From a virus (taxonomy: Duplodnaviria > Heunggongvirae > Uroviricota > Caudoviricetes), in the IMG/VR virus record IMGVR_UViG_2579778894_000011: a stretch of 4,270 nucleotides of DNA, one strand, 5' to 3'. Both the position numbers and the translations under genes were made by a program. The notes beneath the pieces are model-generated. The model made no database searches and was not told where the DNA came from. It worked only from the letters and a program-made list of their open reading frames with translations. Below are positions 1 through 4,270 of this stretch, in pieces; position 1 is the first letter of the stretch; every line of letters begins with the position of its first letter.

Positions 1-25
1 GTCAGAACAAGTGCAAATGCTGTAT

Positions 26-214
26 TCATTGCCAGCATCCTTTTTGTATCGGACGTAAACGGGCCAGCATTGAAAGAATGCATATTTTATTTAATAACTC
101 CCGTTCGTGTTTTCTCTTGTTAATGGCATCTTCAGTAAATACAGGGTTACTGATAGTGACACCAATTTCAAAACAACCTTCAGACGTATTAACGTTTGGT
201 AATAACGTTTCCAT
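26..214 (-). CDS. dicB: Cell-division inhibitor DicB (62 aa); the track ORF 26..319 is an over-extension
   Basis: Minus-strand ORF. The internal ATG at 214..212 gives a 62-aa product, METLLPNVNTSEGCFEIGVTISNPVFTEDAINKRKHERELLNKICILSMLARLRPIQKGCWQ, matching my recollection of E. coli DicB in length and sequence. A GAGGA Shine-Dalgarno lies about 7 nt upstream on the minus strand. It sits downstream of DicF as in the known dicB operon. The 35 extra N-terminal residues in the track ORF have no ribosome-binding site. Confidence 0.8.
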   Translation of the reverse strand: METLLPNVNTSEGCFEIGVTISNPVFTEDAINKRKHERELLNKICILSMLARLRPIQKGCWQ

Positions 215-380
215 TATCGCGTCCTCAACAATGAATTTTGTGATGCGATGCCTGGTGCCTCCAGGTGACGTTAACCAGTTAACAATTAACGCCGGATACA
301 GAGAATCCACCCATAACACTGTTTTTGGTTTTAACTGTTCCGCGTGCGCTCAGCCGCATTCACCACATCACAAAATTCAC

Positions 381-402
381 TTTAAAAACGGCGGCAGAGC
401 AG
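381..402 (-). terminator. Possible leaky intrinsic terminator at the DicF 3' end (GC-rich segment followed by a T-run on the minus strand)
   Basis: Minus-strand RNA reads ...CUGCUCUGCCGCCG followed by UUUUUAAA (plus 381..388 = tttaaaaa). GGCGG and CCGCC segments within DicF can pair. dicB lies downstream, so any termination must be partial. Confidence 0.35.
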
Positions 403-441
403 TCACGGAGTAAAACTGATACCGCCAAACGTCACCAGAAA
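389..441 (-). ncRNA. dicF: DicF small regulatory RNA (about 53 nt, antisense regulator of ftsZ and other mRNAs)
   Basis: The reverse complement of 389..441 is tttctggtgacgtttggcggtatcagttttactccgtgactgctctgccgccg, which matches my recollection of E. coli DicF almost base for base. Its position between ydfC and dicB on the dicA strand is the known arrangement. The exact ends are processing-defined and cannot be fixed from sequence alone. Confidence 0.8.
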
Positions 442-466
442 ATTGATAACAGAGGGCGTTGCAGCG

Positions 467-503
467 GGGTTGTCACTTAAGCGTATGGTCAACCTGACAA
501 CCC
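467..503 (-). other. Stem-loop (9-bp perfect stem GGGTTGTCA / TGACAACCC, 19-nt loop) in the untranslated region just upstream of DicF in the operon transcript
   Basis: Perfect inverted repeat read directly: 467..475 gggttgtca and 495..503 tgacaaccc. There is no ORF on the operon strand here. Candidate RNA-processing or stability element. Confidence 0.4.
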
Positions 504-782
504 GGTGTCCTCAACGGGGGAAGGAATAACCCCGCCATACTTACCGCCGCGCCATTTCGCGGATTGCCACAACCGGAAGCGCACGGTCGACGAAAATTTA
601 ACGACAGGCTATCTATGAACCAGCTACCTCGCCGTGCGCTTTCGCGTTATGGTCTGACTTTTCAGGGAAATATCCTTTCAGTAAACTGTCAATGCCGGAT
701 GCTCACCCGTGTCCGGCGCACGCACTCCACCTCACCCGTGGAGAACTCCTTAATTACTAACCTTAGCTTTGTTGATTAGCTA

Positions 783-1001
783 CTAACGCGGGTATGTAAT
801 CATTCTGGCAATGCTTAATGCCGCTGCTTTTTCCAGATTGGTGATATCCTGCTCCAGAGCGGACAGATTTTCAGCCTGCTTAGCTCTGGCTTCATTGGCC
901 CATTTCAGATCCTGCGCTGCATTAATTTTCTGGTGCATCCACTCATAAAGTTCATCATCGGTATAGTCTGGCGCGATGATGACGGGTTCTCGTTTCTGCA
1001 T
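783..1001 (-). CDS. ydfC: Small prophage protein YdfC-like (72 aa), function unknown
   Basis: 72-aa minus-strand ORF with ATG at 1001..999 and a GAGGAA Shine-Dalgarno 5 nt upstream (plus 1007..1012 ttcctc). The position (third gene after dicA) and length match YdfC of the Qin dicB operon; identity is from recollection, not a search. Confidence 0.75.
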   Translation of the reverse strand: MQKREPVIIAPDYTDDELYEWMHQKINAAQDLKWANEARAKQAENLSALEQDITNLEKAAALSIARMITYPR

Positions 1002-1030
1002 ACTGATTCCTCGCGGTGCTGTTTCGCTTA

Positions 1031-1159
1031 TCAGCCGTTAGATTTTGCCGAACTGGAAAGCGCCTGTTTAAATTCGTTGAAGCTGAGAGCTTCTTCGCCT
1101 TCGGCAAGACCTTCGAAGTATTCTTCGTAAGCCTTTTCCATGATTGTGTCGAAATCCAT
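1031..1159 (-). CDS. ydfB: Small acidic prophage protein YdfB-like (42 aa), function unknown; absent from the supplied ORF track
   Basis: Hand translation of the minus strand gives MDFDTIMEKAYEEYFEGLAEGEEALSFNEFKQALSSSAKSNG, with ATG at 1159..1157 and stop TGA at 1033..1031. A GGTGA Shine-Dalgarno lies about 5 nt upstream. The start sits 1 nt after the ydfA stop (TGAtATG). Length and position match YdfB (42 aa). Confidence 0.7.
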   Translation of the reverse strand: MDFDTIMEKAYEEYFEGLAEGEEALSFNEFKQALSSSAKSNG

Positions 1160-1160
1160 A

Positions 1161-1316
1161 TCACTCACCTGAGTTTCTTTCCAGCCAGCGACGGGCACCA
1201 TTTTCGGTTTTAAACGTTTTGCTTTTGGTATACGTCATCGCGGTGAACGTACCGTCCTGGTTGGGAAACACGCCGTACACCAGAGATTCGTTGTTGCCAA
1301 GATCGATAGTATCCAT
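1161..1316 (-). CDS. ydfA: Small prophage protein YdfA-like (51 aa), function unknown; first gene of the dicB operon
   Basis: The internal ATG at 1316..1314 of track ORF 1161..1370 gives the 51-aa product MDTIDLGNNESLVYGVFPNQDGTFTAMTYTKSKTFKTENGARRWLERNSGE, with a GAGGT Shine-Dalgarno 5 nt upstream. The upstream ATG at 1370 has no ribosome-binding site. Length matches YdfA (51 aa). Confidence 0.7.
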   Translation of the reverse strand: MDTIDLGNNESLVYGVFPNQDGTFTAMTYTKSKTFKTENGARRWLERNSGE

Positions 1317-1393
1317 GCTGACCTCATTTCCCCTTAACGCTGGGGTAGCGGAACTGTTTGCTGAGAACACCGTGCGGTGTGTTGATGCAAATA

Positions 1394-1422
1394 AGATTAG
1401 CCATGGCTAACATATAGGTCAA
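1394..1422 (-). promoter_or_regulatory. Candidate sigma70 promoter of the ydfA-ydfB-ydfC-dicF-dicB operon (PdicB-like): -35 TTGACC, 17-bp spacer, -10 TAATCT on the minus strand
   Basis: Minus-strand read: cactTTGACCtatatgttagccatggcTAATCTtatttg. The -35 is plus 1417..1422 (ggtcaa) and the -10 is plus 1394..1399 (agatta). It lies about 75 nt upstream of the ydfA start and overlaps the palindrome at 1397..1410. Confidence 0.45.
1397..1410. promoter_or_regulatory. Candidate DicA operator: palindrome TTAGC-CATG-GCTAA overlapping the spacer and -10 of the candidate dicB-operon promoter
   Basis: Perfect 5-bp inverted half-sites separated by 4 bp. It belongs to the same family as the two palindromes in the dicA-dicC intergenic region (1893..1906 and 1943..1956). 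Confidence 0.5.
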
Positions 1423-1432
1423 GTGATTTTGT

Positions 1433-1448
1433 ATGTTATGGCTAACAT
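1433..1448. promoter_or_regulatory. Second palindrome ATGTTA-TGGC-TAACAT just upstream of the candidate -35; possible auxiliary operator or other protein-binding site
   Basis: Perfect 6-bp inverted arms with a 4-bp spacer, read directly. It shares the TGGCTAA core with the 1397..1410 site but has different half-sites from the TTAGY family. Confidence 0.3.
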
Positions 1449-1460
1449 GATTGATGTGGT

Positions 1461-1491
1461 AAAAGATAACTCATTGATGATGTTATCTTTT
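1461..1491. other. Perfect 10-bp inverted repeat AAAAGATAAC-(11 nt)-GTTATCTTTT overlapping the dicA stop codon
   Basis: Arms at 1461..1470 and 1482..1491. Read on the plus strand it is followed by TTTTATTTG, so it is terminator-like against antisense transcription into dicA. On the minus strand it is not followed by a U-run. Confidence 0.35.
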
Positions 1492-1890
1492 ATTTGTCCG
1501 CTGACGGGCTTTTAGTAATTCTTCAAAGAGTTTATTGAAGTTTTTTACTCGAGCTCGCATTTCGGCGAGCTGGGTATCCTGTTCTGATTCTGGCAGTGCA
1601 TTAAACAGCTCAAGGAGCTCTAGTTCTTTGGGGGATAAGGCAACTGGCTTCTCAACAGGTGGTGTTGGTTGCTTGTCTTCATCGCCAAATAGAATCCATG
1701 TTGGTGAGCATTGCAATACTTTGCTGAGGGCAAAAAGGTTCTTCCCTGTAGGTTCACTATCATCCCGTTCCCATTGTGATACAGACACATGGGAGATTTT
1801 CAGGGCTTTAGCAAGAGACCTTTGGGTGTGTTTGAGGTTTTTCCGACGATACCTAATGCGTTCGCCGATAGTTAAATTTTTTGTTTCCAT
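1483..1890 (-). CDS. dicA: Prophage repressor DicA (CI/C2-like HTH_XRE repressor, 135 aa)
   Basis: 135-aa minus-strand ORF, METKNLTIGERIRYRRKNLKHTQRSLAKALKISHVSVSQWERDDSEPTGKNLF..., with an N-terminal helix-turn-helix (QRSLAKALKISHVSVSQWE). It matches my recollection of E. coli DicA and is divergent from a Cro-like gene. Confidence 0.9.
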   Translation of the reverse strand: METKNLTIGERIRYRRKNLKHTQRSLAKALKISHVSVSQWERDDSEPTGKNLFALSKVLQCSPTWILFGDEDKQPTPPVEKPVALSPKELELLELFNALPESEQDTQLAEMRARVKNFNKLFEELLKARQRTNKR

Positions 1891-1892
1891 AG

Positions 1893-1906
1893 TTAGCTAA
1901 TGCTAA
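1893..1906. promoter_or_regulatory. Candidate operator in the dicA-dicC intergenic region: TTAGC-TAAT-GCTAA
   Basis: Inverted 5-bp half-sites separated by 4 bp, located between the dicA start (1890) and the candidate dicC -35. Confidence 0.5.
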
Positions 1907-1912
1907 ATCGTA

Positions 1913-1941
1913 TTGACTATGTTTTTGTTAACATCTATTTT
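1913..1941 (+). promoter_or_regulatory. Candidate sigma70 promoter for dicC: -35 TTGACT (1913..1918), 17-bp spacer, -10 TATTTT (1936..1941)
   Basis: Good -35 match with canonical spacing, about 30 nt upstream of the dicC ATG. The predicted transcription start falls inside the palindrome at 1943..1956. Confidence 0.4.
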
Positions 1942-1942
1942 G

Positions 1943-1956
1943 TTAGTTATGACTAA
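1943..1956. promoter_or_regulatory. Candidate operator: TTAGT-TATG-ACTAA overlapping the predicted dicC transcription start
   Basis: Inverted 5-bp half-sites separated by 4 bp, same family as 1893..1906 and 1397..1410. Confidence 0.5.
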
Positions 1957-1973
1957 CAATAAAGGTGTTTTAA

Positions 1974-2204
1974 ATGCTTAAAACTGACGCTCTTTTGTAT
2001 TTCGGTTCAAAAACAAAACTTGCACAAGCAGCAGGTATTCGTTTGGCTTCGCTTTATAGCTGGAAAGGGGATTTAGTTCCCGAAGGTCGCGCGATGCGTC
2101 TACAGGAGGCATCTGGCGGGGAGCTTCAGTATGATCCCAAAGTTTATGATGAATATCGTAAGACGAAGCGGGCGGGGCGGTTGAACAATGAAAATCACTC
2201 CTGA
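1974..2204 (+). CDS. dicC: Cro-like regulator DicC (76 aa)
   Basis: 76-aa ORF, MLKTDALLYFGSKTKLAQAAGIRLASLYSWKGDL..., with an AAGGTG Shine-Dalgarno 6 nt upstream. It is divergent from dicA and matches my recollection of E. coli DicC. Confidence 0.88.
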   Translation: MLKTDALLYFGSKTKLAQAAGIRLASLYSWKGDLVPEGRAMRLQEASGGELQYDPKVYDEYRKTKRAGRLNNENHS

Positions 2205-2709
2205 ACAGGCTCGTGAGGCTCTGGATGCCTGGATATGTCGACCAGGAATGACACAGGAGCAGGCGACGATATTAATCACTGAAGCATTCTGGGCTTTGAA
2301 AGAGCGCCCGAACATCGATGTTCAGCGTGTCACAGATGAAGGTGGCGCGGTTGATCAGCGAGCGCTTGGCGTTAATCGAGTGAAGATATTCGAACGCTGG
2401 AAGGCTATCGACACCAGGGATAAGCGTGAAAAGTTCACGGCGCTAGTGCCTGCGATTATGGAGGCTATCCGGATTAGTGATTTCAGGTTGTATCGTGAGA
2501 TCAGTGATGGAAAAAGTATTACGTACATGATCGCCGGGTTAAATAAAGAATATGGCGATGTGGTGGAATCCGGACTGCTTTTTGCAGATCCTGCCGTTGT
2601 AGATCGTGAAACTGACGAACTTATAGAAAAAGCAATTGCTTTCAAGCTTGCGTATCGACAGCAATACCAACAAAAAGCTGGATGGAATTATGAGTCTTCT
2701 TTTTGCTGA
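2188..2709 (+). CDS. YdaT-family prophage protein (173 aa), likely a CII-like regulator; often labelled toxin YdaT in databases
   Basis: 173-aa ORF directly after the Cro-like gene, overlapping its 3' end by 17 nt. This position is held by YdaT-family proteins in Rac/Qin-type prophages. The family assignment is from gene order and general resemblance, not a search. Confidence 0.6.
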   Translation: MKITPEQAREALDAWICRPGMTQEQATILITEAFWALKERPNIDVQRVTDEGGAVDQRALGVNRVKIFERWKAIDTRDKREKFTALVPAIMEAIRISDFRLYREISDGKSITYMIAGLNKEYGDVVESGLLFADPAVVDRETDELIEKAIAFKLAYRQQYQQKAGWNYESSFC

Positions 2710-3655
2710 ACGCCCACTGGTTATAAACACGCAGCTGGCAATGAAAATTGGCTTAAACGAAGCCATTGTTTTGCAACAACTGCACTACTGGTTGAGAGAT
2801 ACCAACTCCGGCATGGAATGTGATGGTGTTCGCTGGATTTATAACACAACGGAACAATGGCTGGAACAGTTCCCATTCTGGTCAGAGTCAACGTTAAAGC
2901 GCGCGTTTGCAAGTCTGAAAACGCTGGGGCTTTTGCGTTGTGAAAAGCTCAATAAATCAAAGCGCGATATGACCAATTTCTACACGATCAACTACGGGAG
3001 CGAGCTTTTAGATGGTGGCAAATTGAGCGAATCCATCGGTTTAAAATGCGCCGCTCCATCAGGTCAAAATGACACGATGGAAGAGGTCAAAATGAAACGC
3101 TCCATTGGTTCAAAACGACTCAATGTCATCGGGTCAAAATGGCCTGATGATCTTACAGAGAATACAACAGAGATTACTACAGAGAATAAAAAGACTTCTC
3201 GTCCGGAAGCTTCGCAACCGGACCCGCAGACGGTTGAACAGGATTTTTTAACCCGACACCCTGACGCGGTTGTGTTCAGTGCGAAAAAACGCCAGTGGGG
3301 CAGCCAGGAAGATTTGGCGTGTGCGCAGTGGATCTGGGGGCGAATCGTGAGTCTTTACGAGCAGGCCGCCAGCGATGATGGCGAGATTTCGCGACCGAAA
3401 GAACCCAACTGGACCGCATGGGCCAACGACGTGCGCACAATGCGGATGCTGGATGGCAGAACTCACAGACAAATTTGTGAAATGTTTGGTCGGGTGCAGC
3501 GGGATCCATTCTGGGTAAAAAATATCATGAGTCCGTCAAAGCTTCGCGAAAAATGGGATGAACTGGTTATCCGCCTGGGGCGTTCGTTTGTACAGCGTTG
3601 TGTGAATCATATTTCTGAGCCGGATACCGAAATTCCGCCGGGCTTCAGGGGGTAA
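2690..3655 (+). CDS. Phage replication initiator (replisome-organizer, O-like) protein; start uncertain (2690 or 2744)
   Basis: Long ORF (track 2636..3655). An N-terminal winged-helix-like segment (MSLLFAERPLVINTQLAMKIGLNEAIVLQQLHYW...) resembles phage replisome-organizer N-terminal domains. Iteron-like repeats and an AT-rich block sit inside the coding sequence, as with lambda O and ori. The ATG at 2690 overlaps the upstream stop by 20 nt. Confidence 0.7.
   Translation: MSLLFAERPLVINTQLAMKIGLNEAIVLQQLHYWLRDTNSGMECDGVRWIYNTTEQWLEQFPFWSESTLKRAFASLKTLGLLRCEKLNKSKRDMTNFYTINYGSELLDGGKLSESIGLKCAAPSGQNDTMEEVKMKRSIGSKRLNVIGSKWPDDLTENTTEITTENKKTSRPEASQPDPQTVEQDFLTRHPDAVVFSAKKRQWGSQEDLACAQWIWGRIVSLYEQAASDDGEISRPKEPNWTAWANDVRTMRMLDGRTHRQICEMFGRVQRDPFWVKNIMSPSKLREKWDELVIRLGRSFVQRCVNHISEPDTEIPPGFRG
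3062..3142. repeat. Four iteron-like direct repeats (GGTCAAAATGA core) spaced about 23 bp apart inside the replication gene; candidate origin iterons
   Basis: Copies at 3062..3072 (ggtcaaaatga), 3085..3095 (ggtcaaaatga), 3107..3118 (ggttcaaaacga) and 3132..3142 (ggtcaaaatgg). The last is embedded in a local dyad, TCATCgggtcaaaatggccTGATGA. Confidence 0.55.
3155..3188. repeat. AT-rich block with three 12-bp-periodic repeats ACAGAGA(A/T)TA immediately after the iterons; candidate DNA-unwinding region of the origin
   Basis: acagagaata at 3155..3164, acagagatta at 3167..3176, acagagaata at 3179..3188. It encodes a low-complexity linker (TENTTEITTEN) in the replication protein, analogous to the lambda ori layout. 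Confidence 0.5.
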
Positions 3656-3695
3656 GTGTTAATTTCTGGTCATGAGGTAATTTTCAGGAGGGCTT

Positions 3696-4118
3696 GTGGC
3701 AAAAGTTTTTACACAAGAAGAGCGGGAAAAAATTAAAGGGCAGGTTGTTGAACTCGTACGCCGGAGTGGGCGTGAGACGTTACGGCAACTGGAAGTCAAG
3801 ACAGGTGCGACAAGATATCTGATGAGCGTTCTCGCAAGAGAGCTGGTTGCCAGCGGCGATGTATACAACTCTGGTTACGGGTTATTCCCGTCTGAACAGG
3901 CGCGTAAGGACTGGCAAAATGCCCGTAAAAAGCTCTCAAGGGCAAAGCTGAAGGAACCATCTGCGGTTGATCCGGACCTTATCTGGTCATTACCTGACGG
4001 AGAAATACGTCGCTACGACAGGCGTCAGAACATAATCTGTCGCGAGTGCCGGAAGAGTGAAGTTATGCAGCGCATACTAGCATTCTATCAGGGAAATGCT
4101 CGATATTTATTGAAGTGA
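3696..4118 (+). CDS. Hypothetical prophage protein (140 aa), unknown function, GTG start
   Basis: ORF with a strong AGGAGG Shine-Dalgarno (3686..3691) 4 nt upstream of GTG at 3696. It has no Walker A motif, so it is not a DnaC/P-type helicase loader. A basic stretch and a single CxxC (ICRECRK) are present. Confidence 0.6.
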   Translation: MAKVFTQEEREKIKGQVVELVRRSGRETLRQLEVKTGATRYLMSVLARELVASGDVYNSGYGLFPSEQARKDWQNARKKLSRAKLKEPSAVDPDLIWSLPDGEIRRYDRRQNIICRECRKSEVMQRILAFYQGNARYLLK

Positions 4119-4180
4119 TGAGATTAAAGTTTATTAGTTCAGATATTGATTGGCTCTTTTGTGGAGTAGGGTAGAGTTAG

Positions 4181-4270
4181 GGAAGGTGCGAACAAGTCCC
4201 TGATATGAGATCATGTTTGTCATCTGGAGCCATGGAACAGGGTTCATCATGAGTCATCAACTTACCTTCG
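4181..4270 (+). mobile_element. IS5 left end (terminal inverted repeat GGAAGGTGCGAACAAG at 4181..4196), continuing beyond the window
   Basis: The sequence from 4181, ggaaggtgcgaacaagtccctgatatgagatcatgtttgtcatctggagccatggaacagggttcatcATGagtcatcaacttaccttcg, matches my recollection of the IS5 terminus and the start of its transposase. It is immediately preceded by TTAG (4177..4180), which fits the IS5 target preference (YTAR). Confidence 0.85.
4249..4270 (+). CDS. insH: IS5 transposase InsH, first 7 codons only (MSHQLTF...); truncated by the window edge
   Basis: ATG at 4249 followed by codons for SHQLTF, matching the N-terminus of the IS5 transposase as I recall it (MSHQLTFADSEF...). Confidence 0.8.

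Follow-up and report, generated by a model that had tools for sequence, protein, structure and literature searches.

The 140-aa open reading frame (ORF) at 3696..4118 (plus strand) of the window, i.e., of the whole 4,270-nt stretch of DNA analysed here, encodes a Ren-family protein, comes last in an early-right replication block (the Cro-like DicC, a cII/YdaT-like protein, an O-like initiator and this gene) and most likely acts as a Ren-like accessory, a reading to which we assign a probability of about 0.7. The original prediction had described the product as a protein of unknown function, not assignable to a family, encoded where one would expect a helicase loader. Its family was left unassigned because no search tools had been used, and the profile searches, structure prediction and synteny comparison suggested at that time have now been carried out. 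Following these results, the gene should be named DUF977/Ren-like protein, and neither an unknown protein nor a candidate loader.

The window corresponds to the region for immunity and replication of a lambdoid prophage of the DicA/Qin type in Escherichia coli. Many E. coli genomes have chromosomal loci with 100% identity to bases 1-4180, and 456 of 5,426 E. coli genomes cover 80% or more of the window; the exact window, with an IS5 at 4181, was not found in the complete RefSeq E. coli genomes, where the best matches end at 4180. The RefSeq genes of the region are dicB, ydfC, ydfB, ydfA and dicA on the minus strand and, on the plus strand, dicC, a 'toxin YdaT family' gene (cII-like), a gene for a 321-aa hypothetical protein, and that of a DUF977 family protein. 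Further, the DicF antisense sRNA is present in full length at 389-440 on the minus strand (Rfam RF00039, 72.5 bits), between dicB (~26-214, minus) and ydfC, which is where one expects it in prophages of the Qin type.

The gene preceding our ORF encodes an O-like replication initiator of 321 aa (2690..3655, plus strand; PHROG 391 'replication initiation O-like', E-value 1.8e-94), and the two are separated by a spacer of 40 nt. A repeat search within the initiator gene located five iterons with a spacing of 23-24 nt and the core GGTCAAAATG (3020..3149), after which two A-rich 14-nt repeats are found at 3154-3191. Lying in the linker region of the initiator, these iterons and A-rich repeats are the probable origin of replication, and in lambda the ori iterons are likewise annotated within gene O. 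The initiator ends in a tail, RCVNHISEPDTEIPPGFRG (residues 303-321; 3596..3652, plus strand), closely similar to the C-terminus of the E. coli primosomal protein DnaT (…VNTVSEPDSQIPPGFRG), and a weak NCBIfam match to DnaT was obtained. The initiators of phage Tritos and Shigella phage 75/02 Stx, although divergent elsewhere, share this tail without any change, and it is found both in modules that contain a DnaC-like loader and in modules that do not. It may serve as a peptide that recruits primosome or loader proteins of the host; if so, it could account for the existence of loader-less modules.

The ORF itself begins with GTG at 3696 and ends with TGA, and a Shine-Dalgarno AGGAGG, read from the sequence, lies 4 nt 5' of the start (3686..3691, plus strand), all as first described. 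Homologues carry ATG where this ORF has GTG, behind a GGAGG of their own, which confirms the position of the start; loader-containing relatives also show GGAGG at the equivalent site ahead of their ATG. In an identical locus RefSeq annotates exactly this CDS as WP_001151251.1, 'DUF977 family protein'. The product has 16 kDa and a pI of 9.95, and the features first noticed in it are indeed there: no Walker A or Walker B pattern occurs, consistent with the reported lack of ATPase motifs; the centre is basic, with 8 K/R versus 3 D/E in residues 67-88; and the single CxxC (CREC) holds the only two cysteines, C115 and C118. A database search returned 890 homologues (E-value ≤1e-3), and the median dN/dS over 419 allele pairs was 0.12. 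Lack of conservation, named at the outset as an observation that would count against the gene, was thus not what we found, and the ORF at 3696-4118 is a real, conserved gene under purifying selection. On its 3' side, no intrinsic terminator or significant RNA structure was detected (z = -1.1).

An 18-codon mini-ORF (MRLKFISSDIDWLFCGVG*; 4118..4174, plus strand) begins in a TGATG overlap with the stop codon of the 140-aa ORF, and had already been held doubtful. Its ATG is ACG in phage Tritos, which also carries a frame-breaking 1-nt indel, and it is found in only 4 of 80 related loci; judged from these comparisons it is spurious, and it should be dropped from the annotation.

Beyond it the window runs into the end of an IS5 (4181..4270, plus strand), entered at TTAG 62 nt past the ORF stop, with the transposase beginning MSHQLTF at the ATG at 4249; in ~1,500 genomes, an element annotated 'IS5-like element IS5 family transposase' matches positions 4181-4270 with 100% identity. 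In IS-free E. coli loci, identity ends at 4180 and unrelated cargo starts from exactly there, and the slot just 3' of DUF977 is a variable cargo site. In Tritos (L003:5161-6495) the cargo is a 444-aa protein of the PADLOC candidate defence family PDC-S15 (E-value 1e-98), and in an O157:H16 locus (L002:16371-18946) it consists of a SMEK-domain protein and a methyltransferase, the former with a partial match to an Aga_REase-type PADLOC model (E-value 1.4e-20). HannyBb and Rac-SA53 carry still other genes in the same slot.

Profile searches placed the protein in a family. Pfam DUF977 (PF06163) matched with an E-value of 2e-30 and 106 bits (cutoff 22.1), aligning residues 1-135 with profile positions 1-133 of 134, and PF06163 was carried by 120 of the 120 homologues among the matches listed; the 140-aa protein is therefore a full-length member of DUF977, with no structural difference from the family. 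PHROG 142, 'Ren-like exclusion protein', matched with an E-value of 3.4e-46 over profile positions 1-113 of 116. NCBIfam returned no family for the ORF, and PADLOC no defence-system match. DUF977 is a narrow family: 104 clusters at 50% identity were counted for it in a set of 1.84 billion representatives, and fragments are numerous among them. In 24 phage records the same gene is named LygF or 'Ren-like exclusion protein'. In our literature searches the name LygF did not turn up in any phage-related paper, and for DUF977 the only mention found was in a paper on Fic/Doc AMPylation domains. The exact protein is thus already in RefSeq and already labelled Ren-like by phage annotation pipelines, and the gene is an ordinary one.

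Lambda Ren (96 aa, taken from NC_001416) belongs to the same PHROG 142 (E-value 1.6e-41, positions 11-110 of 116) and, like the 140-aa protein, is small, basic and devoid of enzymatic motifs. BLASTP between the two proteins aligned the 20-residue C-terminal motif only (50% identity, E-value 2e-6) and lambda Ren did not reach a match to Pfam DUF977; consequently, a profile-profile comparison was needed, in which an alignment containing DUF977 members only was compared by hhalign with one containing lambda Ren sequences only. The two profiles aligned over 89 columns covering both domains, with a probability of 96.9% and an E-value of 1.6e-10, and this result identifies the 140-aa protein, at the level of sequence profiles, as a long-form homologue of lambda Ren over the winged helix and the C-terminal motif. 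Identity between the two is ~22%, and the 140-aa protein is 44 residues longer, with most of the additional residues separating the winged helix from the C-terminal motif.

The domain organization was explored with an AlphaFold2 model, built from a 23-sequence alignment and with a mean pLDDT of 76.7, which shows a winged helix-turn-helix (wHTH), a basic helix and C-terminal helices. The N-terminal wHTH (residues 7-64; 3714..3887, plus strand) is modelled with a pLDDT of ~90 as three helices and a beta-hairpin wing, and is followed by the basic helix (residues 67-83; 3894..3944, plus strand). The linker at residues 84-110 is of low confidence in the model and varies in length and sequence over the family alignment, and most of the basic helix/linker segment is absent from lambda Ren, being gapped in the hhalign alignment. 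The C-terminal half of the model is likewise of low confidence (pLDDT 50-79), with residues 116-132 modelled as two short helices. This part contains the C-terminal Ren motif (residues 112-131; 4029..4088, plus strand), N-x-x-[C/F]-x-E-C-R-x-S-x-x-M-x-R-x-L-x-[F/V]-Y, in which N112, E117, C118, S121, M124 and R126 are the most conserved positions, invariant across DUF977 members and lambda Ren. The CxxC pointed out at first lies within this motif and is not conserved as a pair: its first cysteine is an invariant phenylalanine in the lambda Ren group, and for this reason we rejected it as a metal site. A zinc ribbon or knuckle would moreover call for four ligands, and two cysteines are all that the protein has.

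Given this fold and a pI of ~10, the protein might be taken for a conventional wHTH transcription regulator (MarR-/GntR-like) of downstream delayed-early, cargo or lysis-lysogeny genes that has no action on replication or exclusion complexes, which we regard as an unlikely explanation. It does share with MarR/GntR/MntR-type factors the N-terminal three-helix and wing fold, and PHROG 2391, 'DNA binding protein', matches it with an E-value of 3e-5. Weak profile and fold matches point to MntR, GntR, MarR and ArsR regulators, N-terminal Ren fragments are labelled 'MarR family transcriptional regulator' in databases, and one distant member of the family is encoded outside a replication module. However, no Pfam regulator family reached its threshold, and MarR, HTH_5 and GntR gave no match even at an E-value ≤1. 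A profile search of PDB sequences yielded marginal wHTH matches (Z-alpha, MntR, AraR and AsnC types; E-values 4e-4 to 3e-3), and Foldseek searches against PDB and BFVD returned generic winged-helix proteins and regulators, covering the wHTH only; no structural match was obtained in PDB or BFVD at an E-value ≤1e-3, the best being 0.026. The 140-aa protein has no dimerisation or effector domain matching those of such factors, and its strongest conservation falls not on the recognition helix but on the C-terminal motif, which is foreign to these regulators and had no counterpart in the sequence-profile or fold searches of PDB and BFVD. Further, variable cargo follows the gene downstream even where the protein itself remains at least 91% identical, which argues against a conserved target nearby, and no operator-like repeats were found in 3656-4180.

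The position of the gene agrees with its assignment to the Ren family. The order in lambda is O-P-ren-ninB (NC_001416), with ren closing the early-right replication block and following the loader; the 140-aa gene occupies the same place, behind any loader that the module contains. Rac-SA53 and Shigella phage 75/02 Stx have the initiator followed by a DnaC-like loader, a DUF1627 protein and then DUF977, whereas in Tritos, mEp460_ev081 and HannyBb, DUF977 comes directly after the initiator, at the same 40-nt spacer position as in the window; gene order and gene sizes in mEp460_ev081 and HannyBb, both deposited as complete phage genomes, match those of the module in the window. These arrangements were counted in the best 80 of ~500 IMG/VR loci, all encoding proteins at least 91% identical, 71 of which were informative upstream. 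As in the window, DUF977 lies directly after the initiator in 47 of these 71 loci, with no other candidate loader in the module, and in the remaining arrangement (24/71) a DnaC-like loader and DUF1627 are found upstream of it. One initiator subtype occurs in both arrangements, and the DnaC and DUF1627 genes thus behave as an optional cassette, with DUF977 as the constant terminal gene of the module. The 140-aa gene is therefore in the ren slot of lambda (O-P-ren) and not in the loader slot that had been proposed: the loader, where there is one, stands upstream of the same gene.

Some differences from lambda were also observed. The coding sequences of P and ren overlap in lambda (39582-40283 and 40280-40570), whereas the 140-aa gene is preceded by the 40-nt spacer and its own AGGAGG; with no overlap upstream, translational coupling of the kind seen for P and ren is absent. 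Within the spacer (3656-3695) lies GTCATGAGGTAA, similar to the GTCATGAAAAAC with which the DnaC-like gene of loader-containing relatives opens; at its 3' end the spacer is also similar to the GGAGGCGCTT-ATG junction of these relatives. From these short resemblances, the loader-less form could be a deletion derivative of the loader-containing one.

Among distant members of the family (31-40% identity), four of five informative ones likewise end a Cro-YdaT-initiator module, and the initiators of these four modules, of the HTH_36 or DUF1376+DnaT types, are unrelated; some of the modules have a loader and some lack one. In one distant locus (L092), DUF977 accompanies a DnaC-like loader, and in another (L096:3378-5354) a DUF1376+DnaT-domain initiator is followed by DUF1627 and DUF977 with no DnaC-like gene, indicating that DUF1627 and the loader are not strictly linked. 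The distant member P0221 (L090:5001-5402, 32% identity) is encoded in an early-left operon beside recombination genes, upstream of the integrase, with a Gp157-like gene on one side, a ParB-like HTH gene on the other and no replication module; the link of the family to replication is thus not absolute.

What is known of lambda ren gives this assignment a functional content. The gene is co-translated with O and P and is non-essential; neither P-lethality nor replicative killing needs it. Mutants of ren grow poorly in Rex+ lysogens, with suppressors mapping to O and P, and Ren interacts with RexB by yeast two-hybrid and with both RexA and RexB by bacterial two-hybrid; its function was considered by the authors to be probably linked to replication. 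The association of ren with initiator-loader modules is likewise on record, Weigel and Seitz (2006) being cited for it.

Homology to lambda Ren and genomic position suggest that the 140-aa protein assists the replication initiation complex as a non-essential accessory; its translation would start from the strong ribosome-binding site of the gene, presumably on the early rightward mRNA. The invariant C-terminal motif of the protein would bind a protein partner, and the basic winged helix probably contacts DNA or a second protein. By analogy with lambda Ren, it would most plausibly keep Rex-type prophage exclusion systems from aborting phage replication, an anti-exclusion mechanism that we put forward tentatively: resistance to Rex exclusion and the binding of RexA/RexB are known for lambda Ren alone, and with Ren below the DUF977 threshold and BLASTP confined to the motif, the transfer of function crosses a distant relationship. 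The 4,270-nt window contains no Rex-like system. In the module of the window, which has no phage loader, helicase loading would presumably proceed via the host DnaB-DnaC, and the DnaT-tailed initiator is a more likely recruiter than the 140-aa protein. As the gene is a genuine, conserved one attached to a replication module, the accessory or regulatory role first suggested for the product was a reasonable reading.

A broader and rather improbable version of this role is that DUF977/Ren is a hitherto unrecognised universal component of lambdoid replication modules, whose motif would dock on host DnaB, DnaC or a primosome protein, and which, where the module has no loader, would act together with the DnaT-tailed initiator in capturing DnaB-DnaC; if that were true, the Rex resistance conferred by lambda ren would arise as a by-product of helicase recruitment.

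A loader function in the strict sense can be set aside. Like the 140-aa gene, the genes of lambda P and of DnaC/IstB-type AAA+ loaders (such as Rac YdaV) stand directly after a replication initiator; however, the 140-aa protein is much smaller, lacks ATPase motifs, resembles helicase loaders neither in sequence nor in fold, and co-occurs with them instead of replacing them. It matched neither Phage_lambda_P nor the IstB/DnaC families IstB_IS21 and Bac_DnaA, DUF977 being its sole Pfam match at an E-value ≤1, whereas lambda P matched PF06992 in the same type of scan. We rejected the helicase-loader reading since the same protein (at least 91% identity) occurs downstream of DnaC-like loaders and, being present alongside them, is not their replacement; the 140-aa protein is neither a helicase loader nor an ATPase.

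It is also very improbable that it serves as a non-ATPase loader or adaptor like lambda P, delivering host DnaB to the origin in loader-less modules. Such modules are functional, as Tritos, propagated on a K-12 strain, forms plaques on it, and in the 47 of 71 loci where the gene stands directly behind the initiator there is no other candidate for the task; the suppressors of lambda ren mutants map to O and P, and the C-terminal motif stays invariant among phages whose initiators are unrelated, which suggests that they share a host partner. Yet a nearly identical protein follows a full DnaC-like loader in 24 of the 71 loci, the homologue in lambda comes after P and is dispensable for replication, neither Walker motifs nor a lambda P or IstB/DnaC family match were found, and the DnaT-like tail of the initiator could recruit the host loader instead. 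Finally, the IS5 in which the window terminates, and the degraded prophages of some genomes with this locus, might suggest that the ORF is fortuitous or is itself decaying in a degraded prophage. This is already refuted by the conservation data (dN/dS 0.12, 890 homologues); the ORF is untouched, with the IS5 62 nt past its stop codon, and phages whose genomes were deposited as complete, plaque-forming Tritos among them, carry it intact.

We therefore return to the Ren-like accessory as the preferred reading, a result that will not surprise a phage specialist. Two points keep some interest: the way in which Ren-family proteins work, and the recruitment of the host helicase by loader-less modules with DnaT-tailed initiators. 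The DUF977/Ren family occurs widely among lambdoid phages of enterobacteria and is strongly constrained, and ren was defined more than 40 years ago; the wHTH and the invariant C-terminal motif, the position at the end of modules with unrelated initiators, and the presence in a loader-less plaque-former now provide handles on Ren.
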